Source: Bacteroidales bacterium (GTDB lineage: Bacteria > Bacteroidota > Bacteroidia > Bacteroidales > UBA11471). Taken from it: a DNA stretch of 64,000 nucleotides. The translations under genes and the position numbers were made by a program. The notes below the pieces were generated by a model. That model searched no databases, was not told the DNA's origin, and saw nothing but the letters and a program-made list of their open reading frames with translations. Of the stretch, positions 9,038 to 59,492 are shown one piece after another. The DNA is taken from contig JAZURX010000022.1 in NCBI GenBank assembly GCA_045606385.1, positions 11,112-75,111 on the forward strand. The letters are read 5' to 3'. Positions within the stretch are counted from its first letter, which is position 1, and each line of letters begins with the position of its first letter.

Positions 9038-9167
9038 AAGATGGGCATTGAGTAATACCTGTCTTGTGGTGTGTAATTGATATATCGGTGGGGTAAAACT
9101 CTCATATAAACCGTACTCGTTGTAAAAAATATAGAAACAAGCTTGATATTTCTCGCTCGTTTATTCC

Positions 9168-19803: not shown

Positions 19804-19888
19804 GGAATAGCTTTTTGGGAAGGTACAATCAAAATTAATAGTTTAATTATCAAAATAGTTATTGTGAACGCGCCTAAAAAGCTATTCC
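19804..19888. repeat. Perfect 13-bp inverted repeat with 59-bp spacer
   Basis: GGAATAGCTTTTT (19804-19816) and AAAAAGCTATTCC (19876-19888). Confidence 0.85.
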
Positions 19889-19892
19889 TTTG
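19828..19892 (+). promoter_or_regulatory. Candidate activator site (21-bp-phased direct repeat) plus degenerate -7 element
   Basis: ATCAAAAT at 19828 and 19849; TTCCTTTG at 19885-19892. Same geometry as the sites at 22296 and 41541. Confidence 0.65.
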
Positions 19893-19964
19893 TATTTGGT
19901 TTTATGATAAGAAAACTGTGAATAAAATAATTGAAAAACACTAACTACAAATAAACAAAGTATT

Positions 19965-22199
19965 ATGAGAAAATTTACTCTTTTAGTTGCAGCCGCGCTT
20001 GTTTCTGCCGGCGTTTCTGCTCAAATTGTTCAAAAATGGGCGGGTTACAACGACCCCGATGCCGCAGGTCTGTTCTTCCCGTGGAATACCACTTTCCCTG
20101 CATTTGTTCTCGAAAATGAAAGTGTTGTTGATGATTTTGCCGACTCTTTCAAAGCCGGTAATATTGCATTGTTCAGTGACGAAGTAGAACCTGCTCTCGG
20201 TGCTGAATTTCTTGATACTCTTGCTACCACTAAACCGACTATCACCGTGTCGGCTGTAGATGTAGCCGGTGTTACCGTAAACAATAGCAAAATTACTTTC
20301 ACATTTGCTCCTGCTGATGATGTAGCCGCATTTACCTCTGCTGCAGAAACTGCCGTTCTTCTAAAAGAGGGTAATGGAACTCTCTATACCGATGTGGCAA
20401 ATAATCTCCCCGGCGGTACCGTTATTAAAGATGGTGTGGTGGCTCGTAAATCAAAAAGCGCTGCTTCTACCCCTGTTTTTGGTAAAAAGGTCGTAGCTCA
20501 AGGTAATGCAACAATCGATCTCGGAAATCTTGGTAGTGACTACGCTTCATTTGCCGCAGATATTGAAATCACCGAAGGTTCTACTCTCAATATGTATGCT
20601 TCTCGTTATACTTATTGGACTGCCGATACCAATACTTACGTAACAGGTTCCGGTACATTCAATCTCTATGCTCGTGGTGAACGTCTATTCTTCGGCGGAT
20701 CAAAAGCTGCCAATCCTGTTTATTTCTCAGGATTCTCGGGTAAACTCAATATTTTGAAAGATCCCGAAGCAACCGGTGCAGGTTTCTATGGTCCTATCTT
20801 CCCGGCTAATACCCCCAAAGGAACCTCTGCATCGAAAGCATTCTATGCAAAACTCGATGGTGACTCACTCCTCTATAATGTATGGAGCACCGACAAAGTG
20901 CTGCTCGACAGCCTCTTCTACGATATGCGCGGTGTTGAAGTATATGTAGGCCCCGGTGCAGCTGTGGCTTGTGAAAGTGCCGGTGGCGCTCCCAACGTGG
21001 CTATGGTTGCTATGAAAAACTTGAACGTAGACAGACAAGGTATTCTTGCCGGTTACTATAAAGACTCTAACCCCCAGTTGGTTATTCTCTATGGTCGTGA
21101 TGACAAAGATAATTATATCGATGGAGCTATTACTGCTTATACCAAAGGTGTATCTCCCTACAAAGAAGACGGTGTGGGCCTTATCAAAGAAGGTAAAGGT
21201 ACCACTTATATCACCGCTCAAGACAACCAAATATACCTGGGTATTGAAGTGTGGGACGGTCGCGTTCTCTTCAATAATGGTAACCAAGAAACTACTACCG
21301 CTACCGGTGCCAACAAAGTATCAAGCAGCAACGTGGTAACCTGTCGTCCTACCGGTACTATCGGCGGTTTTGGTACTATCGGTGGTCACACTGCTGTGTA
21401 TGGTACCTTGCAACCGGGTAGCAATGCTGTAGGTACTCTCCGTATCGACGGTACATACGCTAAGATCGCTTACCAAAACGATGAAAAGAAAGGTATCTAT
21501 TCTGAAGCTACCGGTACCCCCGCCACAAGATCTGCAGGCTCGGCCGCGAACCTTCTTCTCTACAAAGATGCGACTATCGAAATGGAGATTATCAATGCCG
21601 AAAAACATGACCAAATCTTAGTTCAAAACGAAGTTCGTTTGTTCAATGATGATGTTGACGGACAAGTTAATATCAAACTCTCTCCGCGCGACAATTGGTC
21701 GGTAAATGCAGGTGACTCTATCCTCCTTATCCAGTCTAAATCGGCTCGTACTTATATCGACGGCAAAGAACTCGCTGCATGTTTCAATATGACCGCCGAA
21801 GGATTTGGTGCTGCAACCTTTGCACCCGCAGTCGTATTTACTCCTGCTGTTTATGACACTACCTATGTAATGAACGAAGAGACTTTCGAAGAAGAACCGG
21901 TTTATACCCTCGTGTCTGAGTCTGATTTCAAAGTATATGCAGTTGTTACTGCTGCCGGTAATGGTTCTGCCGAACCTGATGCTATCGAAAGTGTTGAGGC
22001 TGAATCTCTCGTTGTTGCCCAAACCGGTAATGTGCTTTCTGTAAGTGGTGTTGAAGCTCCCGCTGTTGAGGTTTACACCATCGCCGGAGTACAAGTTGCG
22101 ACTGTTCCTGTTGTTGCCGGCGAAGCCGTGGTTACACTTCCCGCTCACGGTACTTACGTAGTAAAAGCCGGTAAAGCATCTAAAGTAGTTCTTTACTAG
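19965..22199 (+). CDS. Secreted protein with autotransporter-associated beta-strand repeats and a T9SS-type C-terminal domain; function unknown
   Basis: Signal peptide MRKFTLLVAAALVSAGVSA-Q. Repeats LLKEGNGTL and LIKEGKGTTYIT..N; GTIGGFGTIGG..GTLQPG..VGTLRI segment. C-terminus DAIESVEA..VEVYTIAGVQV..GTYVVK..KVVLY. Confidence 0.75.
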   Translation: MRKFTLLVAAALVSAGVSAQIVQKWAGYNDPDAAGLFFPWNTTFPAFVLENESVVDDFADSFKAGNIALFSDEVEPALGAEFLDTLATTKPTITVSAVDVAGVTVNNSKITFTFAPADDVAAFTSAAETAVLLKEGNGTLYTDVANNLPGGTVIKDGVVARKSKSAASTPVFGKKVVAQGNATIDLGNLGSDYASFAADIEITEGSTLNMYASRYTYWTADTNTYVTGSGTFNLYARGERLFFGGSKAANPVYFSGFSGKLNILKDPEATGAGFYGPIFPANTPKGTSASKAFYAKLDGDSLLYNVWSTDKVLLDSLFYDMRGVEVYVGPGAAVACESAGGAPNVAMVAMKNLNVDRQGILAGYYKDSNPQLVILYGRDDKDNYIDGAITAYTKGVSPYKEDGVGLIKEGKGTTYITAQDNQIYLGIEVWDGRVLFNNGNQETTTATGANKVSSSNVVTCRPTGTIGGFGTIGGHTAVYGTLQPGSNAVGTLRIDGTYAKIAYQNDEKKGIYSEATGTPATRSAGSAANLLLYKDATIEMEIINAEKHDQILVQNEVRLFNDDVDGQVNIKLSPRDNWSVNAGDSILLIQSKSARTYIDGKELAACFNMTAEGFGAATFAPAVVFTPAVYDTTYVMNEETFEEEPVYTLVSESDFKVYAVVTAAGNGSAEPDAIESVEAESLVVAQTGNVLSVSGVEAPAVEVYTIAGVQVATVPVVAGEAVVTLPAHGTYVVKAGKASKVVLY

Positions 22200-22221
22200 G
22201 ATTCTTCATACCATACTATAT

Positions 22222-22256
22222 AGCAAGCGACGCATTATGTGTCGCTTGCTTTTTTT
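22222..22256 (+). terminator. Rho-independent terminator
   Basis: AGCAAGCGACGCA-TTA-TGTGTCGCTTGCT followed by a T run. Confidence 0.9.
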
Positions 22257-22295
22257 ATGAAAATATTTCAGCCGATTGATTTTGTTTTTGAAAAA

Positions 22296-22360
22296 ATCAT
22301 AAAAATAAGTTTTAGTATCATTTTATATAATGGTAAGCTTATTGATAATGTGTTATTTTG
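22296..22360 (+). promoter_or_regulatory. Candidate activator site (21-bp-phased direct repeat) plus degenerate -7 element
   Basis: ATCATAAA at 22296, ATCATTTT at 22317 and TTATTTTG at 22353-22360. Confidence 0.65.
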
Positions 22361-22491
22361 CATCATGAATAGTATGCCTTTTTGAACCGTGAAAAACCTA
22401 TACACTATTTAGTGAGTGGTCTATCGCTTGTTTATAAAGGCTTAAGTAGTTGAATAATATTAATTATAGATAAACCAAAAAAAATATATTC

Positions 22492-25362
22492 ATGAAAAAA
22501 TTTTTATTTGTTGTCGCTTTGGCAATTACGTCGGTAGTTTCAGCATCTGCCGATGGTCTGTTGGCTTTCCCCGGCGCTGAGGGTTATGGGCGTTTTGCTC
22601 GTGGCGCCCGTGCAGGAGCTAATCCTACCGTGTATCATGTTACCAACTTGAAAGACTCGGGTAAGGGTTCGTTGCGCGATGCTGTTAGTCAACCTAACCG
22701 TGTTATCGTATTTGATGTATCCGGTATTATACATCTCGAAAGTCAGTTGGTTTTCTCCAAAAATCTGACAATCGCCGGACAGACAGCCCCAGGTAATGGT
22801 ATCGTTATCTATGGAGAACGGACATCATTCTCAGCGGCCAGTGATGTTATTGTGCGTTATTTGCGTATCCGCATGGGTATCGGAGGTAATGGGCAAAAAG
22901 ATGCTACAGGTGCTTCAAACGGAACCAATATGATATTCGACCATTGCTCGGTAACTTGGGGGCGTGATGAGACTTTCTCTATCAACCCCGATGGTAAAGG
23001 CGATCTTGGAAATATCACCATTCAAAATTCAATTATCGGACAGGGTCTCTCTCCTCACTCTGCCGGTGGTCTTATACAGTGTTGGGACGGTGGTGTGACT
23101 CTCTTCCGTAACCTTTATATCGATAACAAAACCCGTAATCCTAAAACCAAAGGTATCAACCAATATATCAACAACGTGGTATACAACTGGGGTAGCGGCG
23201 GTGCTTACATCGCCGGTGGTGATTCCGAAGGTAAATCTTGGGCCGATGTAGAATATAACCTCTTCATGCGCGGACCTCTTTCGGGTGGTACCGGTATAGG
23301 TGGTGGAAACACACTATTTGCCGCCTACCTCAATGGCAATAAAAATGACTTGAATTGCGATGGTGTTTACAATAGCGTAGATATGACAGATGCAAGCTAT
23401 GGAACCCTTACCATTGCGCGCAGTCTCGAAGAATTGGCACAAGTTGATGGTTATCCTACCGATAATCCTCATCCGGTAATTAAGGCGATGATACCTTCGG
23501 CCGATGATGCTTTTGCGTGGGTGCTCGATAGTGTAGGTGCGATTCTCCCCGGTCGCGATGAAGTAGACGAATATCTTATCAATGAGGTAAAAACTTATGG
23601 TAAAAAAGGTGTTATCATTACCGATGAAAGCGCGTTGGGCTTGGTCAATAAGGTAGGCCATTTCTATGCCGCGCCGAAACCTCTTGATAGTGATAATGAT
23701 GGTATGCCCGATGCATGGGAAACAGCAAATGGTTTGAATCCTAACGATGCTTCGGATAATGTGAAATATGCCGATAACGGCTATCTCAATATCGAGAACT
23801 ATATCAACAGCATCGATACCCCCCTTGATTATGTAAAATATCCTGTCGATGTGGTATTGCAAACCTTGGGTACCGATTCGGCTACTATCAAATTTGGCTG
23901 CTATGAATCCGATCCTACTGCGAAAATCGTTGTGGAAATAACTCCCGATAGTCTCGAAAACTATACCTTGGTTTCGAATTTGGATGTTGTCGCTACCGAA
24001 GCAGTGATAAAAGGTCTTACCCCAAAAACCACATATACCGTTCGTTTGAAAACCGTAACCGATAAAATGACTTCGGAGCCGGTATATTTGCAATTAACTA
24101 CTAAAGGTGAGCCGGGAGCACCTGACCCATCGACGAATCCGTATCCCGCAAATGGAGAGAAGATAACCGATTATACTACGGTTTCTCTTTCGTTTTCGAA
24201 TACAACTGCCGGGCGTCCTCAATTCTTTGTTTATATGGGTACTTCCCCCGAATCGCTCGACTCGATAGGTTCGACACGTGCTAAGTCTTACACTGTTGCC
24301 GTAGAACAGAATACAACTTACTATTGGCGTATCGATGGATCTAATAACTTTGGACGCACTATCGGCGATGTGTGGAGTTTTACTACAGGGACAGAACCCG
24401 TAAGAGTAAAAGTTGCCTATTTTGACTTTAATGAATCGACCGGTTCGACCGCGGTAAATGTGCCTTCTGATGAAGAAATCATCGCCAATGATGCGAACAC
24501 AAATGCCTCCTTCGTCCCCGAGTGGACCGACGGTAAAATCAATGGAGCCATTACATTTACCGGTGCTTCTACAACCGATGCTATGATTGTTCCTTGCTAT
24601 GATGAGATAAACTTTGCCGATGGTGCGTTCTCGTATGAATTGTGGTTCAAATCGACCTCTGCAAGCAGCTCTCAAAGCCGTTACTTGTTGCACAAAGGAA
24701 GCCATGTCGCATCATCGACAGCAAGCGGTAAATGGTTTGGTCTCGAATATAAGAACGGTGAGTTGTATTTTGCCGTCGACGATGACGTGACAAAATCGGT
24801 AATCAATTTCAGTGCTACCTCTTGTTTCGATGGTAAGTGGCATCATGTCGTGGCTGTTCGTGACGTTGAAAATGCAAAATTGTTGATTTATCTCGATGGC
24901 GCATTGAAAACAACGGGTGATGATAAAACAGGCTCGATTGCAGCTGATGAACCCTTGATTATCGGTAATTGTAATGTCAATTTCGATTCACCTTTTGTAG
25001 GCTCTATCGATGAGTTGACTTTGTACAATGAAGCTCTCACCGCTGTAGAGGTTGCCGCTCGTTATCAACAAGGTCTGTCTTCGGCTGTAAAAGATGTGGA
25101 AAATGACATTCTTGGAAGTGAGATGGTTGTATCGCCTTCTTCATTTGACAAGCAATTTACAATATCATTACCTCAAGTCGTGTCGGGCTCTGTAATAGTG
25201 GAATTGTTTAATCTTGCCGGTGCACTTGTTTATTCGACTACTTGTGTTGCCGAACAAGGCGTATTGACTGTTGACGGACTCGAAACTCTTGCCGCAGGTG
25301 CATATACTTGCTCTGTAACAGTAGATGCTACGGTTTATACCGCACGTGTAATTAAATACTAA
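22492..25362 (+). CDS. Modular PL1 pectate lyase-like protein with FN3-like, LamG-like and T9SS C-terminal domains
   Basis: AFPGAEGYG, VYHVTNL.DSG.GSLRDA, FDHCS.TWGRDE, RNPK and DSDNDGMPDAWE. FN3-like IKGLTPKTTYTVRL; LamG-like DGKWHHVVAVRD..FVGSIDELTLYNEAL; CTD VELFNLAGALVY..GAY..RVIKY. Confidence 0.88.
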   Translation: MKKFLFVVALAITSVVSASADGLLAFPGAEGYGRFARGARAGANPTVYHVTNLKDSGKGSLRDAVSQPNRVIVFDVSGIIHLESQLVFSKNLTIAGQTAPGNGIVIYGERTSFSAASDVIVRYLRIRMGIGGNGQKDATGASNGTNMIFDHCSVTWGRDETFSINPDGKGDLGNITIQNSIIGQGLSPHSAGGLIQCWDGGVTLFRNLYIDNKTRNPKTKGINQYINNVVYNWGSGGAYIAGGDSEGKSWADVEYNLFMRGPLSGGTGIGGGNTLFAAYLNGNKNDLNCDGVYNSVDMTDASYGTLTIARSLEELAQVDGYPTDNPHPVIKAMIPSADDAFAWVLDSVGAILPGRDEVDEYLINEVKTYGKKGVIITDESALGLVNKVGHFYAAPKPLDSDNDGMPDAWETANGLNPNDASDNVKYADNGYLNIENYINSIDTPLDYVKYPVDVVLQTLGTDSATIKFGCYESDPTAKIVVEITPDSLENYTLVSNLDVVATEAVIKGLTPKTTYTVRLKTVTDKMTSEPVYLQLTTKGEPGAPDPSTNPYPANGEKITDYTTVSLSFSNTTAGRPQFFVYMGTSPESLDSIGSTRAKSYTVAVEQNTTYYWRIDGSNNFGRTIGDVWSFTTGTEPVRVKVAYFDFNESTGSTAVNVPSDEEIIANDANTNASFVPEWTDGKINGAITFTGASTTDAMIVPCYDEINFADGAFSYELWFKSTSASSSQSRYLLHKGSHVASSTASGKWFGLEYKNGELYFAVDDDVTKSVINFSATSCFDGKWHHVVAVRDVENAKLLIYLDGALKTTGDDKTGSIAADEPLIIGNCNVNFDSPFVGSIDELTLYNEALTAVEVAARYQQGLSSAVKDVENDILGSEMVVSPSSFDKQFTISLPQVVSGSVIVELFNLAGALVYSTTCVAEQGVLTVDGLETLAAGAYTCSVTVDATVYTARVIKY

Positions 25363-25373
25363 AATTGACAGAT

Positions 25374-25413
25374 AAAAGGAGATGCCGACAACATATAGGT
25401 GTCTCCTTTTTTT
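25374..25413 (+). terminator. Rho-independent terminator
   Basis: AAAAGGAGATGCC / GGTGTCTCCTTTT stem (two G-U pairs) with a T7 run. Confidence 0.8.
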
Positions 25414-25423
25414 ATTCTTAAGT

Positions 25424-26218
25424 ATGAAAAAAACTATCATCACATTGTGTGCGATTTTTGCCATGTATGGCATTGGAACGTTCGATGCTTCGGCAAAAAA
25501 GGATAAAAAAGCAAAAACGGCTGTTTTTGTTATCGGTGATTCGACCGTAAAAAACGGCAAAGGTAAGGGCGACCGTGGCCAATGGGGCTGGGGAAGTTTC
25601 ATCCGAGCGTTTTTTGATGAATCAAAGGCCGAAGTGCATAACCATGCCATTGGAGGACGCAGCAGTCGTACCTTTATTACCGAAGGTAGATGGACTCTTG
25701 TGCTCGATTCCTTGAAGAAAGGTGATTATGTGTTGATACAGTTCGGACACAATGATGGAGGTGAGTTATTTACGGGGAATCGTCCTCGTGCATCGCTCAA
25801 AGGTGTCGGTGATGAAGATACCACCGGTATTGTGGAAATGACTGGTAAACAAGAGACCGTAACGACCTATGGCGCATATCTTCGTAAGTATGTACGGGAA
25901 GCGAAGGCCAAAGGTGCACATCCTATTCTTTGTACCCTGATACCCCGCAACCGTTGGAAAGATGGTAAAGTGATGCGCGATGACCGCCATGCTGTATGGG
26001 CGCGTCAAGTGGCCGCCGAAGAAAATGTACCTTGTATCGATCTCAATACACTTATAGCCGATATTTATGATGAGATGGGGCAGGAGACAGTAAAATCATG
26101 TTTTACCGAGGCCGATTGGACACATACATCTGAGCAAGGGGCTCGAATTAATGCCCGAGTTATTGTTGAACAGATAAAATCTATGCCTAAGTGTAAACTC
26201 AAAAAGAGTTTGAAATAA
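25424..26218 (+). CDS. CE12 rhamnogalacturonan acetylesterase
   Basis: IGDSTV, WGWG, HAIGGRSSRTF, IQFGHNDG and DWTHT. Start moved to MKKTII (ATG 25424). Confidence 0.9.
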   Translation: MKKTIITLCAIFAMYGIGTFDASAKKDKKAKTAVFVIGDSTVKNGKGKGDRGQWGWGSFIRAFFDESKAEVHNHAIGGRSSRTFITEGRWTLVLDSLKKGDYVLIQFGHNDGGELFTGNRPRASLKGVGDEDTTGIVEMTGKQETVTTYGAYLRKYVREAKAKGAHPILCTLIPRNRWKDGKVMRDDRHAVWARQVAAEENVPCIDLNTLIADIYDEMGQETVKSCFTEADWTHTSEQGARINARVIVEQIKSMPKCKLKKSLK

Positions 26219-26251
26219 AAATCAACTACTATGGCATAGATGGATATATCG

Positions 26252-26294
26252 ACGAGAGTGTCAGATGTTTTTGAATCATTGACACTCTCGTTTT
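26252..26294 (+). terminator. Terminator-like hairpin
   Basis: Perfect 12-bp ACGAGAGTGTCA / TGACACTCTCGT, then TTT. Confidence 0.75.
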
Positions 26295-26338
26295 GCATTT
26301 ATTTATCATTGGTGGCAAAATATTCTAAAAAAATAGCG

Positions 26339-26346
26339 TATCTTTG
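26339..26346 (+). promoter_or_regulatory. -7 promoter element for GH2-GH106-GH28
   Basis: TATCTTTG 39 nt upstream of ATG 26386. Confidence 0.6.
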
Positions 26347-26385
26347 ACTAATTGTGCTTAGATGTGAAAATTAATATTGAAACCT

Positions 26386-29259: not shown

Positions 29260-29280
29260 TATTATAATATCAGTCATACA

Positions 29281-32079: not shown

Positions 32080-32107
32080 TTATAACATAATATATCAAAT
32101 ATCAAAA

Positions 32108-33637: not shown

Positions 33638-33645
33638 ATTTAATA

Positions 33646-33681
33646 CGAAAAGGTGTCTCTGTCAGAAAAGACACCTTTTCG
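33646..33681 (+). terminator. Stem-loop just after the GH28 stop
   Basis: Perfect 13-bp CGAAAAGGTGTCT / AGACACCTTTTCG. No U-tail outside the stem. Confidence 0.6.
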
Positions 33682-33724
33682 GTCAAAAACAATATGCGAT
33701 TTCTCTAAGAAATCGCTATTTTTG
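33661..33724 (+). promoter_or_regulatory. rha operon promoter region: phased direct repeat, palindrome and -7 element
   Basis: GTCAGAAA (33661) and GTCAAAAA (33682) 21 bp apart; GCGATTTCT-CTA-AGAAATCGC (33696-33716); TATTTTTG (33717-33724). Confidence 0.55.
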
Positions 33725-33754
33725 TATCGTCTAATAATGCTAAAAGCTATTACT

Positions 33755-35236
33755 ATGAGTATACACAACTTTTTTGCCGTGGATTTGGGCGCAACCAGTG
33801 GACGTACTATTTTGGGTACCTTGGTCAACGGGAAAATGGAAATGAGAGAAATTTCTCGTTTTGCCAACCCTATAATTGAGACAGGAGGGCATTTCTATTG
33901 GGATATATATGCATTGTATCTCGAAATTATCAAAGGCCTAAAAATTGTGTCTCGCGAAGGTATCTCCATCGAATCGATTGGTATCGATACTTGGGGAGTA
34001 GACTTTGTAATGATAGGTAAAGATGGTGCTATATTGCGTAATCCTTATTGCTATCGTGATCCTCATACAGTAGGCGCAATCGAAGAGTATTTTACACATA
34101 TTCCCGGTGAACGTGTGTATGAGCTGACGGGAATCCAATTCCTCAATTTCAACTCATTATTTCAACTCTCGACATTACATCGCAATCATTGCTCAGCACT
34201 CGAAGCCGCCGATAAAATACTGTTTATGCCCGATGCCCTCAGCTATATGCTGACCGGCAAAATGGTGACAGAGTATACCATCGCATCGACCTCGCAAATA
34301 CTTAATCCCTGGACAAAAGAATTTGAACAAGAATTGCTCGATGTTGCCGGAGTGAAAAAAGGACAATTTGCACCGTTTGTATATCCAGGTGAAAAAATCG
34401 GCGTACTTACACCCGAGGTACAGAAATTGACCGGTCTCGGAGCAATACCTGTAATAGCTGTAGCGGGTCATGATACAGCTTCTGCGGTAGCGGCTGTGCC
34501 TGCTCGCGATGAACATTTTGCATATCTTAGCTCAGGAACATGGTCGTTGATGGGTATCGAAGTAAAAGATGCAATAATCAATCGCGATAGTTTCGAAATG
34601 AATTTTACCAACGAAGGTGGTATAGAGGGAACAACCCGATTCTTGAAAAATATATGTGGAATGTGGTTGCTCGAACAATGCAGACGTGAATGGTCGGCGG
34701 CCGGAAACGATTATTCTTACCCCGAGTTGATAGCTGCTGCCGAGGCTGCACCGGCCTTCCGTAGTATTATTAATCCCGATTCTCCATGTTTTGCAAATCC
34801 TGTGTCGATGACCGAGGCTATATGCATGTATTGTAGAGAGACCGCACAGCCCGAACCTCGTAATTATGGTGAGTTTACTCGTTGTATTTTCGAAAGTTTG
34901 CCTTTGCGTTATCGTCAAGTATTTGGCTATTTATGCAATATGGCTCCTTTTGCAATTAATCGATTGCATGTTATTGGTGGTGGTTCTCGAAATAATCTGC
35001 TGAATCAGAATACCAGCAATGCTCTTGGTGTAGAAGTACTTGCAGGCCCATCAGAAGGAACTGCCATCGGTAATATTATGTTGCAGGCCAAAGCTGTAGG
35101 TGATGTGGCCGATATAAAAGAGATGCGTGACATTATTGCACGGTCGATAGAATCATCAACCTTTATGCCCGAAGACAAAGAAACTTGGGATAAAGCCTAT
35201 GAATCATATCTCGCAGTGTATAGAGAAGATATATAA
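33755..35236 (+). CDS. rhaB: Rhamnulokinase
   Basis: AVDLGATSGR, IGIDTWGVD, GHDTASAV, SSGTWSLMG, FTNEGG and IGGGSRN; lies upstream of rhaA. Start moved to ATG 33755 (33737 is an alternative). Confidence 0.92.
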   Translation: MSIHNFFAVDLGATSGRTILGTLVNGKMEMREISRFANPIIETGGHFYWDIYALYLEIIKGLKIVSREGISIESIGIDTWGVDFVMIGKDGAILRNPYCYRDPHTVGAIEEYFTHIPGERVYELTGIQFLNFNSLFQLSTLHRNHCSALEAADKILFMPDALSYMLTGKMVTEYTIASTSQILNPWTKEFEQELLDVAGVKKGQFAPFVYPGEKIGVLTPEVQKLTGLGAIPVIAVAGHDTASAVAAVPARDEHFAYLSSGTWSLMGIEVKDAIINRDSFEMNFTNEGGIEGTTRFLKNICGMWLLEQCRREWSAAGNDYSYPELIAAAEAAPAFRSIINPDSPCFANPVSMTEAICMYCRETAQPEPRNYGEFTRCIFESLPLRYRQVFGYLCNMAPFAINRLHVIGGGSRNNLLNQNTSNALGVEVLAGPSEGTAIGNIMLQAKAVGDVADIKEMRDIIARSIESSTFMPEDKETWDKAYESYLAVYREDI

Positions 35237-35263
35237 TAATCAAATATAATATAATCTAAAATC

Positions 35264-36517
35264 ATGAAAGAAAATCTTATTCTCCAAGCTTATGAAATAG
35301 CGAAAGAACGCTATGCATCTATCGGTATAGATACCGATAAAGTATTAGAGCAATTGCAAGACTTCCATTTGAGTATGCACTGCTGGCAGGCCGATGATGT
35401 AAAAGGTTTTGAAGTTCAAGCCGGTGCTATGTCGGGTGGTATACAGTCTACCGGTGATTTCCCCGGTGCTGCCCGCAATATCGATGAATTGCGTTCTGAT
35501 GTACTCAAGGCAAAATCGCTTATTCCCGGTACACATCGTCTCAATCTGCATGAAATTTATGGCGATTTCAAAGGTAAGGTTGTAGATCGTGATGAGGTAA
35601 CCGTCGAATATTTCCAATCTTGGATCGACTGGGCCAAAGAAAATAATACTTTGCTCGACTTCAACTCTTCGTCGTTCTCTCACCCCAAGAGTGGTAGTCT
35701 TACACTCTCTAATCCCGATAAAGGTATCCGTGAATTTTGGATCGAACACACTAAACGTTGCCGTGATATTGCCAACGCTATGGGTGAAGCTCAAAATGAT
35801 CCTTGTATCATGAACTTGTGGGTGCATGATGGTTGCAAAGACGTAAGCGTAAATCATGCATTGTATCGTAATCTTTTGAAACAATCGCTCGACGAGATAT
35901 TCGAGAAAGAACAACCCATGATGAAAGATTGTATCGAAGGCAAGGTGTTTGGTATAGGATTGGAAAGCTTTACTGTAGGTTCGCATGATTTCTATACTGC
36001 ATACGCATCTAAGTATGACAAGATTCTTACCATTGATACCGGTCACTATCACCCTACAGAGTCTCCTGCCGACAAAGTAAGTGCTGTATTACCCTTTGTT
36101 AAAGAGCTTATGTTGCACGTTTCGCGTCCTGTTCGTTGGGATTCGGATCATGTGACCATTATGGACGATCCCACACAAGAATTGTTCTTCGAAATCGTAC
36201 GTGCCGGAGCTCTCGATCGTGTGCACTACGGACTCGATTTCTTCGACGGCTCTATCAACCGTATTGGCGCTTACGTTATCGGTTCTCGTTCGGCTCAGAA
36301 ATGTATGCTTCGTGCCTTACTCGAACCTCGCGAACTTATTTCGAGACTCGAGATTGCAGGAGAAGGCTATAAAGTTCTTGCTCTTATTGAAGAACAAAAG
36401 GCAATGCCTTGGAATGCAGTATATGATATGTTCTGCTTGAAAAATAATGTTCCTGTTGGCGACGAGTTTATAGCAGAAATCGAAAAGTACGAACGTGACG
36501 TTACTTCTAAGAGATAA
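35264..36517 (+). CDS. rhaA: L-rhamnose isomerase
   Basis: SMHCWQADDV.GFE, RLNLH, GSHDFY, DTGHYHPTE and LHVSRPVRWDSDHV. Confidence 0.96.
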   Translation: MKENLILQAYEIAKERYASIGIDTDKVLEQLQDFHLSMHCWQADDVKGFEVQAGAMSGGIQSTGDFPGAARNIDELRSDVLKAKSLIPGTHRLNLHEIYGDFKGKVVDRDEVTVEYFQSWIDWAKENNTLLDFNSSSFSHPKSGSLTLSNPDKGIREFWIEHTKRCRDIANAMGEAQNDPCIMNLWVHDGCKDVSVNHALYRNLLKQSLDEIFEKEQPMMKDCIEGKVFGIGLESFTVGSHDFYTAYASKYDKILTIDTGHYHPTESPADKVSAVLPFVKELMLHVSRPVRWDSDHVTIMDDPTQELFFEIVRAGALDRVHYGLDFFDGSINRIGAYVIGSRSAQKCMLRALLEPRELISRLEIAGEGYKVLALIEEQKAMPWNAVYDMFCLKNNVPVGDEFIAEIEKYERDVTSKR

Positions 36518-36539
36518 TTAAACAAAATTATTATCCCAA

Positions 36540-36579
36540 AAAAGGTTTATGGTAGGAGATTTCCTGCCACAAACCTTTT
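36540..36579 (+). terminator. Intra-operon hairpin between rhaA and rhaT
   Basis: AAAAGGTTTaTGGTAGGA / TCCTGCCAcAAACCTTTT long stem with one mismatch. Confidence 0.65.
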
Positions 36580-36596
36580 AACCGTATATAAAGATT

Positions 36597-37631
36597 ATGG
36601 AAATAGTAATAGGACTTTTAATTATTGCCGTAGGTGCATTCTGCCAGTCGAGTAGCTATGTACCTATCAATCGTATCAAGCAATGGAGTTGGGAATCGTA
36701 CTGGATTGTACAAGGCGTTTTTGCTTGGCTTGTCTTCCCGATTTTGGGGGCCTTACTTGCTGTGCCTGCCGGCCACTCATTGTGTGAGTTGTTTACTTCC
36801 GAGAATACTTTTAGCATATTTATGACCATATTATTTGGCGCATTATGGGGTATCGGAGGTCTTACATTCGGACTATCTATGCGTTACCTTGGTGTTGCGC
36901 TTGGTCAAAGTATCGCATTGGGAACGTGCTCGGGGTTGGGTACGGTTTTGGGCCCTGTGATGCTTCATGTTTTCTATCCCGAAGCAAATCATCTGCAAAG
37001 TCTTACCGCTGCTGTAATTATTGGCGTCGTGGTGATGTTGTTAGGTATTGCCATTATAGGTTATGCAGGTTCTTTGAAGGCTGCTTCACTCTCTGAAGAA
37101 GAGAAAAAGGCTGCTGTAAAAGATTTTAATTTTCCAAAAGGTATTGCGATTGCTTTATTGGCCGGTTTTATGAGCGGTTGTTTCAATGTCGGCCTTTCTT
37201 TTGGCGGAGAATTGCATTTTGCCGAGACGGGAGATATGTACAAAACTCTTCCTGCAACAATGTTGGTAACTTTCGGTGGATTCTTTACTAATGCGATTTA
37301 TTGTTTCTATCAAAATGCAAAGAACCATACATGGAGCGATTATAGAAATGGAAGTGTATGGGGGAATAACCTCGTGTTCTGTGCATTGGCAGGACTTTTA
37401 TGGTATAGTCAATTCTTTGGATTGAGTCTCGGTAAAGGATTCCTTACATCGTCTCCGGCTCTTATGACATTTGCTTGGTGTATACTTATGGCATTGAATG
37501 TAACATTCTCTAATGTATGGGGTATTATACTTAAAGAGTGGAAGGGTTGCTCATCTAAGACTATTGCCGTTCTGTTGGTCGGTATTGTAGTTCTTATCAT
37601 TTCGACATTCCTCCCCGAACTGCTTAAATAA
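36597..37631 (+). CDS. rhaT: L-rhamnose/proton symporter
   Basis: About 10 hydrophobic segments; WSWESYW, GALWGIGGLTFGLSMRYLG and WGIILKEW. Confidence 0.95.
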   Translation: MEIVIGLLIIAVGAFCQSSSYVPINRIKQWSWESYWIVQGVFAWLVFPILGALLAVPAGHSLCELFTSENTFSIFMTILFGALWGIGGLTFGLSMRYLGVALGQSIALGTCSGLGTVLGPVMLHVFYPEANHLQSLTAAVIIGVVVMLLGIAIIGYAGSLKAASLSEEEKKAAVKDFNFPKGIAIALLAGFMSGCFNVGLSFGGELHFAETGDMYKTLPATMLVTFGGFFTNAIYCFYQNAKNHTWSDYRNGSVWGNNLVFCALAGLLWYSQFFGLSLGKGFLTSSPALMTFAWCILMALNVTFSNVWGIILKEWKGCSSKTIAVLLVGIVVLIISTFLPELLK

Positions 37632-37660
37632 AATTATATAACCGTAATAATGATATAGTT

Positions 37661-38470
37661 ATGAAATCAATATTAGACGGACGTGCCGCTCTTGCGGCTG
37701 AAGTAAACAAAGTGGCTGAGGTTGCCGGTTATTTGTGGCAAAAAGGTTGGGCCGAACGTAATGGCGGTAATATCACTATTAATATTACCGAGTATGTCGA
37801 CGACGAGATTCGTAGTATGCCCGCTATTGGCCCCGTAACCCCTATCGGTACTACTTTACCTAATATCAAAGGTTGCTATTTCTACTGCAAAGGTACTAAT
37901 AAACGTATGCGAGACTTGGCTCGTTGGCCGATGGAAAACGGCTCTGTAATTCGCATTCTCGATGATTGTGCAAGCTATGAAATTATTGCCGACAATGTTG
38001 TAAAGCCTACTTCAGAGCTCCCGGCGCATCTTTCTATGCACAATTTTCTTATTGGTAAAGGTTCATCTTATAAGGCTTCATTGCATACTCACCCGATCGA
38101 ATTGGTGGCGATGAGTCATAATCCCATATATCTCGAAAAAGATGTTCTCACACGTCTTTTGTGGAGTATGATTCCTGAAACTAAGGCTTTCTGTCCTCGT
38201 GGTTTGGGTATCATTCCTTATAAACTGCCCAGTTCGGTAGAACTGGCCGAGGCAACAATAAAGGAACTTGACGATTACGATGTAGTAATGTGGGAAAAAC
38301 ACGGTGTTTGTGCTGTCGGTGAGGATATTATGGATGCATTTGACCAAGTAGATGTGTTGTGTAAGTCGGCTCAAATCTATATAAATGCACGTTGCATGGG
38401 ATTTGAACCCGAAGGTATGAGCGATGAACAAATGAAAGAGATGACCGTAGCATTCAATCTCCCCAAGTAA
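37661..38470 (+). CDS. rhaD: Rhamnulose-1-phosphate aldolase
   Basis: GWAERNGGNI, PTSELPAH, HTHP and WEKHG class II aldolase motifs. Confidence 0.95.
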   Translation: MKSILDGRAALAAEVNKVAEVAGYLWQKGWAERNGGNITINITEYVDDEIRSMPAIGPVTPIGTTLPNIKGCYFYCKGTNKRMRDLARWPMENGSVIRILDDCASYEIIADNVVKPTSELPAHLSMHNFLIGKGSSYKASLHTHPIELVAMSHNPIYLEKDVLTRLLWSMIPETKAFCPRGLGIIPYKLPSSVELAEATIKELDDYDVVMWEKHGVCAVGEDIMDAFDQVDVLCKSAQIYINARCMGFEPEGMSDEQMKEMTVAFNLPK

Positions 38471-38491
38471 AAAATATTCAATTATAGTAGT

Positions 38492-39802
38492 ATGAAGAAG
38501 TTATCATTATTGGTAATGCTTTTGGCTGTGATATTTTCGGCTTTTGCGGCTGCGCCCAAAAAGCGCACTGCAAAAGATGTTGCAGTGGTTATGGCCGATC
38601 GTATTATCGAAAGCACTACATACCAATTCAAAAATACCGAAACCAATGAGACATTCGGCACTGTAAAAAAACAGAAAGTCGATGATCCTATCAAGGTGGC
38701 ATGTAAGTACAACGACTGGCATTATACCAACGGAGTATTGCATATAGCTATGCTCGAATTGGCTGAAAAACTCGGCGATAAGAAATATGAGGATTATGTG
38801 TTGAAAAACATGAATTTTGTATTCAATGAAGGGAATCTCGACTATTTCAAAAAGAAGTTTGATAAAGCTTTGGAACAAGGTGGCTGGATGGCCGTGCGCA
38901 AAGTGAGTTGGCACATGATTTTCCGTGGAAAACGTCTCGATGATAATGGCCCCATGGGAGCATCGCTTATCGATTTGCAAATGCGCTTACCAAAACCTGA
39001 TAAGGCTTTTCAAGCCTATATCGACGAAACTGCCGATCACCTCAATTATGCAGAGCCTCGTCTTATCGATGGTACTATAGCGCGTCTGTGGCCGCATGAA
39101 AATACCGTATGGGCCGATGACCTCTTTATGGCGGTATCTTTCCTCTGTCGTATGGGCGAAATGACCGGCGACATGAAGTACTTTGATGATGCTGCCAATC
39201 AAGTTCTGCAGTATAATAAATATTTGTGGTGTCCCGAAAAGCAGATTTATTACCATTGCTATCACACCGATACCGATGAGCATGGCGTGGCGCATTGGTC
39301 TCGTGCCAATGGTTGGATGCTTATGGCGCAAGTTGATTTATTGACCCGTCTGCCCGAAAATCACCCGCAACGTGCCGCTTTGTTGCGTAATTTTCAGCAA
39401 CAAGTGAGTGGCGTATGTCGTTATCAGGGTAAAAATGGTTTGTGGCATCAGCTCCTCGACAAAACCGATTCATATGATGAGGTTACAGGTACCGCCATGT
39501 TTACATTTGCTATTGCCCGCGGTGTGAAAAATGGTTGGATTCATAAAGATTTTATCTATGTCGCCGAGCAGGGTCTTAAAGGTATGCTTACCAAGATTTC
39601 TGAAGCGGGAGATCTCGAGGCAATATGTGTTGGTACAGGTATAATGCCTTCATTATCGTATTATTATAATCGTCCTACGCAAAAGAATGACCCGATGGGT
39701 GAAGGTCCGGTTTTGCGTGCGTTGATAGAAATGATGGATGCAAAAAAATACACTGAAATCAAAGCAGAACAACAATACGATCGTATTGTCGTCAAGAAAT
39801 AG
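38492..39802 (+). CDS. GH105 unsaturated rhamnogalacturonyl hydrolase, signal peptide
   Basis: DWHYTNG, LDDNG, WADDLFM, WSRANGW, GLWHQLLD and ICVGT motifs. Confidence 0.9.
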   Translation: MKKLSLLVMLLAVIFSAFAAAPKKRTAKDVAVVMADRIIESTTYQFKNTETNETFGTVKKQKVDDPIKVACKYNDWHYTNGVLHIAMLELAEKLGDKKYEDYVLKNMNFVFNEGNLDYFKKKFDKALEQGGWMAVRKVSWHMIFRGKRLDDNGPMGASLIDLQMRLPKPDKAFQAYIDETADHLNYAEPRLIDGTIARLWPHENTVWADDLFMAVSFLCRMGEMTGDMKYFDDAANQVLQYNKYLWCPEKQIYYHCYHTDTDEHGVAHWSRANGWMLMAQVDLLTRLPENHPQRAALLRNFQQQVSGVCRYQGKNGLWHQLLDKTDSYDEVTGTAMFTFAIARGVKNGWIHKDFIYVAEQGLKGMLTKISEAGDLEAICVGTGIMPSLSYYYNRPTQKNDPMGEGPVLRALIEMMDAKKYTEIKAEQQYDRIVVKK

Positions 39803-39812
39803 TTAACGTTGT

Positions 39813-39853
39813 GGTCACTTCATCCTTAAAGAGTTTGAAGTGACCTATTTTTG
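39813..39853 (+). terminator. Terminator-like hairpin whose tail also matches TAnnTTTG
   Basis: GGTCACTTCA / TGAAGTGACC 10-bp stem followed by TATTTTTG (39846-39853). Confidence 0.65.
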
Positions 39854-39865
39854 CAAAAAAATATC

Positions 39866-41287
39866 ATGAAAAAATTATTTTTATTGTGCGCTATTATGGC
39901 TCCGATATTGCTTTCGGCGCAAATTTCGTCGAAAGAGGTGTGGAAACAAGCTGCCAAAATCGAAAAAAACATAAAAAAGACATCATTCCCTAAAGCTACA
40001 TTTTGTATTACTGATTTTGGCGCTAAACCCAATACTCCCGATGCACCATGTCATGATGCCATCAATTTGGCTATAGTGACTTGTAATCAGTCCGGCGGTG
40101 GTACAGTTATTGTGCCTCAAGGTACGTTCTATACAGGACCTATTACACTCAAAAGTAATGTAAATTTTCATCTCCAAGAGGGTGCAGTGCTTAAATTTGA
40201 TACCAATCCCAAACTTTATGAACCGGCGGTGCTTACCCGCTGGGAAGGTCTCGATTGCTATAATCTGCATCCTTTGATTTATGCTTTTGGCGAGACCAAT
40301 ATCGCTATTACCGGTAAAGGAATCATCGATGGACAAGGTTCGCGTGAAACATGGTGGCCTATGTGTGGAGCCGCCCGCTATGGTTGGAAAGATGGTATGG
40401 TGGGACAAAATTGTGGAGGCCGTGCACGCTTATTGGCTTGGGGTGAATCGGGAGAACCTATCTACAAGCGTGTGTTTTCAGCTGAAGACGGTATGCGTCC
40501 GCAATTGGTAAATTTATATCGTTGTGATCGCGTGTTGGTCGAAGGTGTTACCATGCAAAACTCTCCTTTCTGGACTCTGCACCCCCTCTTCTGCAATAAT
40601 CTTATTGTTCGTGGTGTACACTTTGTAAATCAAGGCCCTAATGGTGACGGTTGCGATCCTGAGTCTTGTGATGGAGTGATTATTGAAGATTGTATTTTTG
40701 ATACCGGTGATGACTGTATAGCCATCAAAAGCGGACGCAATCGCGATGGACGTACTTGGGGCGTTCCCAGCCAGAAGATCATTGTGCGTAATTGCAAAAT
40801 GTATGATGGCCATGGTGGAGTTGTTGTAGGGAGCGAAATCTCAGGAGGTTACAAAAATCTCTTTGTCGAAAATTGTGAAATGGATAGCCCAAATCTCGAT
40901 CGTGTGATACGTATCAAAACAAGTAATTGCCGTGGAGGTATTGTCGAAAATATATTTGTACGTAATGTAAAAGTGGGTGTATGTCGAGAAGCTGTTCTCC
41001 GTATCAACTTGCAATACGAAAACAGAGAGATTTGCGACCGTAGTTATCCACCTGTTGTACGCAATGTTTTGTGCGAAAATATTGTTTGCAACGGTAGTAA
41101 GTTGGGTGTCTATTTTGTAGGTCTTGAGGGTAGCGATAATATTTACAATATCCAAGTTGATAATTGTGAATTTAATAACGTACAGAAAGGTCCGAAAGAT
41201 GGCCTTTATATCAAAGGGGGCATCAAAGATGTTCGTTTCAACAATCTTAAAATCAATGGTGAGGCGGTAGCATCACCCACGAAATAA
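39866..41287 (+). CDS. GH28 exo-polygalacturonase-like enzyme
   Basis: NGDG, GDD, GHGG and RIK motifs. Start moved to MKKLFLL (ATG 39866). Confidence 0.92.
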   Translation: MKKLFLLCAIMAPILLSAQISSKEVWKQAAKIEKNIKKTSFPKATFCITDFGAKPNTPDAPCHDAINLAIVTCNQSGGGTVIVPQGTFYTGPITLKSNVNFHLQEGAVLKFDTNPKLYEPAVLTRWEGLDCYNLHPLIYAFGETNIAITGKGIIDGQGSRETWWPMCGAARYGWKDGMVGQNCGGRARLLAWGESGEPIYKRVFSAEDGMRPQLVNLYRCDRVLVEGVTMQNSPFWTLHPLFCNNLIVRGVHFVNQGPNGDGCDPESCDGVIIEDCIFDTGDDCIAIKSGRNRDGRTWGVPSQKIIVRNCKMYDGHGGVVVGSEISGGYKNLFVENCEMDSPNLDRVIRIKTSNCRGGIVENIFVRNVKVGVCREAVLRINLQYENREICDRSYPPVVRNVLCENIVCNGSKLGVYFVGLEGSDNIYNIQVDNCEFNNVQKGPKDGLYIKGGIKDVRFNNLKINGEAVASPTK

Positions 41288-41293
41288 TACTTC

Positions 41294-41340
41294 AGAGATC
41301 CGCTTCGACTCAATATAGTTGGAGCGGATTTCTCTCTATT
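41294..41340 (+). terminator. Terminator-like hairpin after GH28
   Basis: AGAGATCCGCTTCGACT / AGTTGGAGCGGATTTCT stem with G-U pairs and a pyrimidine-rich tail. Confidence 0.7.
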
Positions 41341-41540
41341 TGCCAATAGCAAAATTTATACTTGTTTATATATCACAATTTTTCTTGAGCACCTCTTTTT
41401 TATTATTTGAAAAGAAACTACCCTCTTTTGCATTTGCTGAAAAATGCAGAAATAGCTCATTTATAAGTCGCATATTCTTATATCTCTTATTTTTTTAGCT
41501 GCTCCAAGTTCCTCAATAGTGTTAAATAAAATCGTTAAGC

Positions 41541-41605
41541 GTCAAAAAGTGTAGTATTAATGTCATTTCGCGCACGATTGTCGTAAGTGTTTACATTTAT
41601 CTTTG
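41541..41605 (+). promoter_or_regulatory. Candidate activator site (21-bp-phased direct repeat) plus -7 element for the SusC/D operon
   Basis: GTCAAAAA at 41541, GTCATTTC at 41562 and TATCTTTG at 41598-41605. Confidence 0.7.
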
Positions 41606-43791: not shown

Positions 43792-43837
43792 AATCGAAAA
43801 TATAATAAACAATATATATATAAAACTGCGAAGTATT

Positions 43838-46222: not shown

Positions 46223-46246
46223 GAATAATACAACAATATATACGCT

Positions 46247-49531: not shown

Positions 49532-49542
49532 TTACTGCCGAT

Positions 49543-51051: not shown

Positions 51052-51071
51052 TCTCGAAAAAGTAATATTCT

Positions 51072-52670: not shown

Positions 52671-52676
52671 TGTACG

Positions 52677-54506: not shown

Positions 54507-54526
54507 TATCAAACACACAATACGAT

Positions 54527-57658: not shown

Positions 57659-57677
57659 TCCAAAGGAGATATAGATT

Positions 57678-59405: not shown

Positions 59406-59428
59406 TATCGATAACCCATAAATATTTC

Positions 59429-59462
59429 AAGTGTCCGAAGTGGGCTTCCGCTTCGGACACTT
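59429..59462 (+). terminator. Strong stem-loop between susD2 and the DUF4450 gene
   Basis: AAGTGTCCGAAGTGG-GCTT-CCGCTTCGGACACTT, 15-bp stem with one G-U pair; weak U-tail. Confidence 0.7.
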
Positions 59463-59492
59463 ATGCTTTAGTACTATAATAAATATCGAACT

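Follow-up and report, generated by a model that had tools for sequence, protein, structure and literature searches.

At class II sites such as I1-I2 of AraC and the XylS site at the Pm promoter, AraC-family proteins bind direct half-sites with a 21-bp period, each composed of two sub-sites one helical turn apart, and the proximal half-site touches the -35 region. Bacteroides promoters have the consensus TTTG at -33 and TAnnTTTG at -7. In Bacteroides thetaiotaomicron, the AraC-family protein RhaR (BT3768) is a positive regulator of the rhamnose operon, and the reconstructed RhaR regulon of Bacteroides is given as a single catabolic operon in PMC3878776. The same paper describes the operators predicted for the hybrid two-component systems (HTCS) HTCS_Rgu-1 and HTCS_Rgu-2, located upstream of Bacteroides rhamnogalacturonan utilization operons, as direct repeats of 12-14 bp with 6-9 bp spacers, ~21 bp apart. 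In Dickeya (Erwinia chrysanthemi), RhaS, a rhamnose-responsive AraC-family activator, controls rhiT, rhiN, and rhiE, according to PMC3870299, which gives the sites of Escherichia coli RhaS as inverted repeats. Here, we describe a tandem operator, termed the box, in three promoters of a rhamnogalacturonan-type utilization locus from a Bacteroidales bacterium. The locus lies within a stretch of 64,000 nucleotides (the window; G000:C22:11112-75111, contig JAZURX010000022.1 of assembly GCA_045606385.1). The three promoters probably constitute the regulon of a RhaR-type AraC activator, for which a protein encoded on another contig, C33, is the most likely candidate on comparative sequence evidence.

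As with BT3768, the AraC-family regulator proposed here is linked to rhaK/rhaA(I)/rhaT/rhaD-type genes, the box preceding rhaK in relatives and in other genera (L077, L078, L098-L101). Unlike the Bacteroides RhaR regulon, this locus has its boxes ahead of two genes for secreted enzymes and of the operon for SusC/D import, the proposed regulator is encoded at an unlinked position, and the rhaK site of the genome under study (G000) is degenerate. The half-site arrangement matches that of the class II sites of AraC and XylS, whereas its promoter partner would be of the Bacteroidota -33/-7 type (TAnnTTTG-like) instead of a sigma-70 -35/-10 promoter, and the half-site sequence differs. In contrast to HTCS_Rgu, no HTCS co-occurs with the boxes across the genus; the regulators that neighbor the boxes elsewhere are 300-aa (amino acid) cytoplasmic AraC proteins, and therefore the sensor would be cytoplasmic, not periplasmic. 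Dickeya RhaS resembles the regulon described here in reaching from rhamnose catabolism to rhamnogalacturonan uptake and degradation (PMC3870299). It differs in belonging to an unrelated AraC subfamily of a proteobacterium, without SusC/D or type IX secretion system (T9SS) components, and its sites, taken as inverted repeats as that paper states for E. coli RhaS, contrast with the direct repeats found here. An AraC-family activator with 21-bp tandem half-sites and a rhamnose regulon are known; new are the targets (a SusC/D operon and secreted enzymes of a pectin locus), the proposed move of the regulator gene to another site, and the inclusion of two uncharacterised protein families. No report of RhaR control of a Bacteroidota polysaccharide utilization locus was found by title or abstract, which is not proof of absence.

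Three promoters of the locus share a tandem box

An earlier note on this DNA, made from the sequence alone, described a phased motif in three promoters, at 19828, 22296, and 41541. All three boxes read as quoted there: in every case, the start of the second box is 21 bp from that of the first, and a -7-like octamer follows it at exactly 36 bp. The sites, named S1, S2, and S3, occupy the three largest intergenic regions of the locus and share 14 invariant columns out of 29. Two of the octamers deviate from TAnnTTTG, as also noted earlier: those of S1 and S2 lack the TA, and that of S3 fits.

19828..19863, + strand: S1, with distal half-site 19828-19842 (ATCAAAATTAATAGT) and proximal half-site 19849-19863; matrix score 33.0; kept in 8 of 8 orthologous promoters
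19885..19892, + strand: -7-like octamer of S1, TTCCTTTG, 73 nt before the ATG at 19965 and 36 bp from the start of the proximal box
22296..22331, + strand: S2, with half-sites 22296-22310 and 22317-22331; matrix score 33.4; kept in the 6 readable orthologous promoters
22353..22360, + strand: -7-like octamer of S2, TTATTTTG
41541..41576, + strand: S3, with half-sites 41541-41555 and 41562-41576; matrix score 32.1; kept in 10 of 10 orthologous promoters
41598..41605, + strand: -7 octamer of S3, TATCTTTG, which fits TAnnTTTG, 42 nt before the ATG at 41647

The box and its spacing are conserved across the genus

Orthologues of the 744-aa protein encoded downstream of S1 and of the 714-aa protein that leads the S3 operon were collected from the other ten species in the genus and share 39-87% identity at the protein level. 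Anchoring their upstream regions on the octamer gave 27 candidates, from which three off-register duplicates (L001 4038, L007 4027, and L008 4139) were dropped. The 24 retained promoters, from genomes G000-G010, comprise eight of S1 type (beta-helix gene), six of S2 type (PL1 gene), and ten of S3 type (SusC/D operon). In all 24, both boxes are present, their period is 21 bp, and the octamer lies at the 36-bp distance, while the flanks diverge freely. C3, A4, A13, C24, A25, and A34 are invariant throughout, T15 and T23 occur in 23 sites, and G14 and T36 in 21. The mean top-base fraction reaches 0.86-0.96 in the boxes versus 0.58-0.75 for flanking DNA on the 5' side and 0.64-0.68 for the spacer of 29 bp; the octamer columns (0.94-0.99) come next to the boxes in conservation.

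Within the distal half-site, the sub-sites TCA (positions 2-4) and AGT (positions 13-15) lie 11 bp apart and are mirrored in the proximal one as C24/A25 and A34/T36. A34 and T36 correspond to A13 and T15 moved along by 21, which makes the unit a tandemly repeated half-site of 15 bp, RTCAWWW-N5-AGT; its proximal copy ends 21 bp before the TTTG-ending octamer at all 24 sites. The 21-bp period holds in these 24 sites and in nine sites of other genera. An 11-bp sub-site spacing combined with a 21-bp half-site spacing places four sub-sites on one helix face, as for a dimer of AraC proteins with a double helix-turn-helix (HTH).

S1 orthologues carry TTTCTTTG or CACCTTTG at the octamer offset, S2 orthologues TTTATTTG or TTAATTTG at the identical 36-bp offset, and the S3 octamer is identical in nine of ten orthologues, the other having TACCTTTG. 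Among the weaker sites, the distal box of S3 reads GACAAAAT in five of ten species, and CCA or CTC replaces TCA in one S1 and two S2 sites.

Scanning 4.38 million genome positions with a 36-column matrix built from the 24 genus sites gives the window sites 32-33 bits, with the next best matches at 22.0 and 17.9. Genome-wide, the matrix thus singles out S1, S2, and S3, and nothing else in G000 exceeds 22 bits. In the syntenic locus of the complete genome G002, the same scan returns S1, S2, and S3 together with a 20.0-bit site in the 209-bp gap before rhaK, where the octamer TATTTTTG follows at 36 bp. The counterpart in G005 scores 16.3 bits at the canonical 36 bp, and both rhaK sites lie outside the training set of the matrix. 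The regulon of the relatives, as proposed here, has a fourth promoter beyond the three described earlier, before rhaK, which is the canonical target of a rhamnose regulator. Its equivalent in the window is degenerate:

33661..33724, + strand: degenerate fourth site before rhaK, with boxes GTCAGAAA and GTCAAAAA 21 bp apart and no AGT

This region contains a hairpin at 33696-33716, followed by the octamer TATTTTTG at 33717-33724, 35 bp from the proximal box.

A separate feature of these promoters is an inverted repeat of 9-11 bp between the proximal box and the octamer. In S1-type promoters of five species (L003, L004, L006, L007, and L008, ~1395-1425), it takes the form AGAGTTATTTC...GAAATAACTCT, TTTCTTTG comes after it, and species differ by a compensating A/G-T/C change; an inverted repeat occupies the same place in the rhaK promoter of G000 (33696-33716). 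The repeat might act as a terminator shielding the promoter from read-through, or as a second operator.

In other genera the box adjoins AraC-family genes and rhaK

A strict pattern that includes the TTTG anchor was searched over 401 genomes of the order and yielded 29 matches, six in the genus and 23 outside it, against eight for a backwards control. Six of the 23 were examined. Three of them, from one genus (g31; L076, L077, and L078), lie directly upstream of a rhamnulokinase gene (TIGR02627, E 3.6e-150), with a divergent ~300-aa AraC-family gene on the other side of the box in L076 and L078. A fourth (L056, genome G141) has a 303-aa AraC gene on one side and a SusC gene on the other. The last two, L075 and L059, are in or beside unrelated open reading frames (ORFs) and look like chance.

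We also fetched rhaK loci from 90 further genomes and scanned the 21 loci outside the genus with the genus matrix. Four have their best match in the region upstream of rhaK: L098 (19.5 bits), L099 (12.2), L100 (10.8), and L101 (19.5). Read by eye, the sequence at 36 bp is an octamer ending in TTTG for L098, L100, and L101 and ACATTTAC for L099.

The G141 cluster has the order GH106-rhaK-rhaA-rhaT-rhaD-GH105-AraC gene-box (17.2 bits)-SusC-SusD-box (13.5 bits)-702-aa protein-DUF4450. It is syntenic with window positions 29281-63203: the 702-aa protein shares 66% identity with the window's 714-aa protein, and the two DUF4450 proteins share 58%. By this synteny, the regulator gene of G141 stands where the window has only S3. 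In G027 (C20) and G040 (C53), RhaR-family genes are divergent from box-carrying promoters (19.5 and 16.2 bits, respectively), the former leading to a GH78 rhamnosidase. In six loci of five other genera, the immediate neighbor of the box is an AraC-family gene or rhaK. The first genes downstream of the boxes were compared by BLAST with the window's 714-aa protein: those of G040:C53 and G027:C20, along with that of G000:C3 (~700-790 aa), show no similarity, and among the four compared, only the G141 gene matches.

These neighbors bear on the reading that the boxes are bound by some other regulator of 21-22-bp direct repeats, of LytTR or OmpR type for example, with the co-location of RhaR genes being incidental. 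LytTR regulators bind 9-bp direct repeats, separated by 12-13 bp and placed a short way upstream of the promoter, to which the TCAWWW core bears a loose resemblance. The second sub-site, A13/G14/T15, one turn after TCA, however, suits an AraC domain with two HTH motifs better than a 9-bp LytTR box, and the AraC-family or rhaK neighborhood in the six loci also speaks against it. Parsimony weakens this explanation, no search having been made for LytTR or OmpR genes beside the boxes, and we consider it highly improbable.

A RhaR-family protein encoded on contig C33 is the candidate regulator

G000 C33, ~38114-39100, - strand: RhaR-family AraC gene, downstream of an ispH-like gene

The protein combines a cupin-type AraC_binding domain (PF02311) with HTH_18 (PF12833). 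It is 58% identical to the G141 regulator and 78% identical within the HTH region, with near-identical recognition helices, and 39-43% identical to the rhaK-divergent regulators of other genera. When the G040 regulator was used as the query, clear orthologues (E 1e-73 to 1e-81) appeared in 10 of the 11 genus genomes; in G000, the next best match after the C33 protein is 25% identical, so that C33 carries the only RhaR-family member found in this genome. The window belongs to C22. In G002, the regulator gene is 1.1 Mb from the locus. Together, the position on C33 and the distance in G002 uphold the earlier proposal of an unlinked regulator, and the comparative evidence likewise supports an AraC-type activator encoded outside the window that would act on phased direct repeats beside activator-dependent promoters. 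Autoregulation of the C33 gene was considered and rejected: by eye, no canonical site lies upstream of it, and none is present there among the listed matrix matches.

Chance resemblance and other evidence against the regulon

Several results weigh against a RhaR-type regulon, the first of them from chance tests. All gapless 29-column three-way alignments of the three intergenic regions were enumerated and compared with first-order Markov simulations that kept the lengths and dinucleotide statistics of the real regions. The best observed alignment has 15 invariant columns; simulated regions reached at least 14 in 47 of 120 trials and at least 15 in five. The bare alignment on which the earlier note relied is thus not significant in AT-matched DNA, since 14 or more columns arise so often. 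With TTTG required at the same fixed offset in all three regions, the observed value is 14 against a simulated maximum of 10 (0/3000), so that the motif together with its fixed TTTG distance does exceed simulated AT-rich intergenic DNA; the 36-bp anchor, however, was picked post hoc from the data. The loose core TCA-N8-AGT-N7-TCA has 24 matches in the genome, about the number expected by a rough base-composition estimate with no shuffle control, and three of the 24 are the S1, S2, and S3 promoters.

Such figures leave room for the similarity to be chance or a generic promoter feature of the lineage, an AT-rich UP-like element followed by a -7 box, and the 23 strict matches elsewhere in the order versus eight for the backwards control, most of the 23 not having been examined, can be read the same way. 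Against this, other promoters of the locus, at 9038-9142 and 26219-26376, the latter with consensus TATCTTTG, have no box. Neither the isolation of the three sites in the matrix scan nor six columns invariant in 24 of 24 sites, next to columns that vary, fits chance, and the anchored simulation never reached the observed value. We regard this explanation as extremely improbable. The case for significance rests on the anchored test and on conservation, and conservation is the decisive evidence.

The remaining adverse points concern the reach of the box and the identity of its regulator. In G000 itself, the rhaK promoter scores only 10.7 bits, without AGT and with 35-bp spacing; a GH28 gene is inserted upstream of rhaK in this genome, and the promoter retains just two RTCA boxes. 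No box was found before the operons starting at 9143 and 26377, whose intergenic regions (9038-9142 and 26219-26376) were read. Outside the genus, 17 of the 21 rhaK loci have no genus-matrix site upstream of rhaK, and in many of these rhaK is not the first gene of its operon. A matrix made from the nine outside-genus sites ranks S1 first and S2 third of the 4.38 million G000 positions, with S3 absent from its top 12, and the test is partly circular because those nine sites were located with the genus pattern or matrix. The HTH region of the C33 protein is only 42-47% identical to those of the rhaK-divergent regulators in other genera. Finally, no RhaR orthologue was found in G006, although this genome, 99% complete, contains sites of all three types. 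The absence is most likely due to a gap in the assembly, judging from the contigs: in the sister genome G001, a dispersed repeat lies on both sides of the regulator gene, the same repeat has many copies in G006 (most of 146 matches), and G006 contig C30 starts within it, beside the conserved flank.

The repeat itself (L091, G001:C51, ~1040-1300 and 2684-3560) is often matched at contig ends in G006; possibly it is an element of MITE- or REP-like kind that causes breaks in these assemblies.

Hybrid two-component regulators do not track the box

A further reading assigns the boxes to the AraC-type output domain of an HTCS, either the one encoded on C22 (G000:C22:4709-8719) or one elsewhere. Several facts speak for it. 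Predicted HTCS operators are likewise direct repeats ~21 bp apart (PMC3878776). A complete HTCS (Reg_prop, Y_Y_Y, HisKA, HATPase_c, Response_reg, and HTH_18) lies 11.5 kb upstream of the first gene of the locus, and in G002 and G005 an HTCS is on the same replicon or contig as the locus. G000 encodes nine HTH_18 genes, three of full HTCS size, with a fourth frame of 912-935 aa on C69.

Across the genus, however, HTCS presence and the boxes part company. All genus genomes carry boxes, and the C22 HTCS has no orthologue among the four HTCS retrieved from G002 and G005, with which its identity does not exceed 26%; a frame similar to it (1342 aa, a possible orthologue) was seen only in G004. G005, 99% complete and with all three site types, has only two HTCS-sized HTH_18 genes. 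Each heads its own paralogous SusC/D cluster, whose promoters have a different conserved element (AAAAATACACYTNTTTG in one cluster, TTTGAATAA...TACAAGCAATAAACCAATT in the other) and no canonical site; the one 20.5-bit match in these clusters has the wrong spacing. The nearest HTCS of G002 is ~50 kb beyond the end of the locus, and in the five other genera the boxes adjoin small AraC genes and rhaK instead. Because HTCS presence does not track the boxes and the HTCS clusters have no canonical site, an HTCS is unlikely, and this regulator was rejected on co-occurrence across the genus and promoter content; we put it as a quite improbable alternative. The AraC-type regulator of the earlier note is thereby refined: it is probably a classical RhaR-type AraC protein of ~300-330 aa and not an HTCS.

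Two HTCS regions of G000 have features of their own. On C22 (G000:C22:16-8719; L048), the complete 1336-aa hybrid two-component regulator lies 2.4 kb outside the window, ahead of its start. Two paralogues without a known family (691 and 801 aa, 73% mutual identity) precede this regulator, and a SASA esterase gene follows it. A paralogous cluster at G000:C3:6008-31700 encodes an HTCS, proteins of 705 and 798 aa, two SusC/SusD pairs, and a 799-aa protein that has a C-terminal domain in common with the window's beta-helix protein. AAAAATACACYTNTTTG occurs in the promoters of this cluster and twice more in the divergent region before gene C3:31703; it is probably the operator of the cluster's HTCS.

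Proposed mechanism and significance

In the RhaR-type regulon proposed here, each promoter would carry a tandem operator of two 15-bp direct half-sites with a 21-bp period. The spacing of TCA and AGT, one helical turn apart, corresponds to the geometry of a single AraC/XylS-type domain with two HTH motifs. The proximal half-site, 21 bp before the octamer, would take the place of the -33 element in class-II-like activation; the promoters have no good -33, and two also have no good -7, as would fit activator dependence. The predicted regulator is the single RhaR-family AraC protein of G000, encoded on C33 and unlinked to the window. Its effector would be L-rhamnose or a rhamnose-containing breakdown product, bound in the cytoplasm, by analogy with Bacteroides RhaR. 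Activation would turn on the secreted beta-helix protein, the secreted PL1 lyase with its esterase, and the SusC/D import operon; in relatives, the rhaK-rhaD catabolic operon would also be switched on. We infer binding, activation instead of repression, the effector, and the function of the octamers as -7 elements from the DNA and protein sequences.

We see an even chance that, in this uncultured genus, a cytoplasmic, monosaccharide-sensing RhaR-type regulator, in place of an HTCS, SusR, or ECF sigma system, is the master switch of both the outer-membrane SusC/D import operon and the T9SS enzymes. Its gene would have started out within the cluster, where G141 still has it, and moved away while its operators stayed behind, and the regulon would have recruited two families of unknown function, those of the 744-aa beta-helix protein and of the 714-aa protein. 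Such an arrangement would suggest that whole SusC/D loci can be governed by a cytoplasmic sugar-sensing AraC protein and not by the periplasmic sensors regarded as the rule in Bacteroides. More broadly, the analysis proposes a regulon, open to testing, for a rhamnogalacturonan locus of 54 kb from a lineage represented solely by metagenome assemblies, and names a candidate regulator on another contig. It also connects the secreted beta-helix protein and the 714-aa protein at the head of the operon, neither of which has a known family, with the breakdown of rhamnose-containing pectin. The box with its fixed 36-bp spacing could serve as a ready-made rhamnose-type inducible promoter architecture for Bacteroidota.

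The proposed cargo proteins

The earlier note took the S1 and S2 units to encode two T9SS cargo proteins. For the PL1 protein, this is supported by a hidden Markov model (HMM) match to a sorting domain, TIGR04183 (Por_Secre_tail type A), at residues 887-955 (23.4 bits against a cut-off of 23). The 744-aa beta-helix protein has no T9SS match in Pfam or NCBIfam, including when its last 100 residues are searched alone, and it is a putative cargo protein: over its final ~85 residues it is similar to the C-terminal ends of other proteins of ~800 aa in these genomes, and an Atlas lead points to a T9SS sorting domain (score 0.84). Further Atlas leads are to PATR repeats and, weakly, to an RG-lyase C-terminal domain.

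The description of this protein as an unknown beta-helix protein held: it matches no family, and both its predicted model and the Foldseek search are consistent with a beta-helix. The AlphaFold model, built from eight sequences, is all-beta (pLDDT 66, pTM 0.63), and its best Foldseek match is 7jvi_A (E 2.4e-15, TM(target) 0.72, 21% identity), a beta-helix domain retrieved from a capybara gut metagenome. Judging from this match, gut Bacteroidota may possess a family of secreted beta-helix proteins that bind carbohydrates or act on them. The protein's proposed tie to pectin use is likewise supported, its promoter sharing the conserved box with those of the PL1 gene and the SusC/D operon.

Gene content and transcription units of the locus

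The assembly of G000 comprises 2.19 Mb in 79 contigs at 42% G+C and is 79% complete. From 9143 to 63203, nearly all genes of the window lie on the + strand, and ORFs and Pfam matches together outline the rhamnogalacturonan-type utilization locus. The part ending at 19768 encodes GH2, GDSL esterases, GH51 arabinofuranosidases, a SASA esterase, and GH105 (Pfam GH88); GH2, GH106, GH28, rhaK/rhaA/rhaT/rhaD, GH105, and GH28 span 26377-41287. The S3 operon, delimited by ORFs and Pfam, has two SusC/SusD-like pairs between the 714-aa protein and the DUF4450 protein.

19965..22199, + strand: gene of the 744-aa protein, monocistronic, without a Pfam or NCBIfam family
22222..22250, + strand: terminator-like hairpin of 13 pairs with a T run, 3' of the beta-helix gene
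22492..26218, + strand: S2 transcription unit, comprising a PL1-like pectate lyase gene (22492-25362) and a GDSL esterase gene (25382-26218)
33755..38470, + strand: rhamnose catabolic genes rhaK, rhaA/I, rhaT, and rhaD inside the locus (Pfam)
41647..63203, + strand: S3 operon, beginning with the gene of the 714-aa protein of unknown family, followed by genes for a fasciclin protein, SusC (46247-49531), SusD (49543-51051), two fasciclin proteins, a second SusC-like protein (54503-57658), a 575-aa protein, and a DUF4450 protein (59493-63203)

The strong terminator-like hairpin at 22222-22250 divides the S1 unit from the S2 unit. The PL1-like protein also matches Laminin_G_3 (Pfam) and NCBIfam PelZ (E 7.9e-30). 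A hairpin with a T run follows the S2 unit within 26219-26376; it reads CGAGAGTGTCA...TGACACTCTCG and TTTTG, and the consensus TATCTTTG promoter comes after it. With a hairpin followed by a box-free promoter, the GH2-GH106-GH28 part seems to be separately and differently controlled.

Homology alignment, translation, and promoter layout place the true start of rhaK at about ATG 33755, not at the GTG 33653 of the mechanical ORF, which leaves a 117-bp intergenic region with the hairpin and the degenerate site. One RNA run, available as contigs only, gave short low-depth contigs scattered over the locus, none of them over the S1 and S2 intergenic bins, and is uninformative on transcription starts.

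Rhamnulokinase matches with in-frame stops occur in four genomes of other families (L107, L114, L116, and L121): three TGA codons in G016 (L107, G016:C10:24338-25780), one TGA in G037, one TAG in G012, and one TAG in G030, where only one of two copies is affected. Pseudogene formation, sequencing errors, or recoding may account for these stops.

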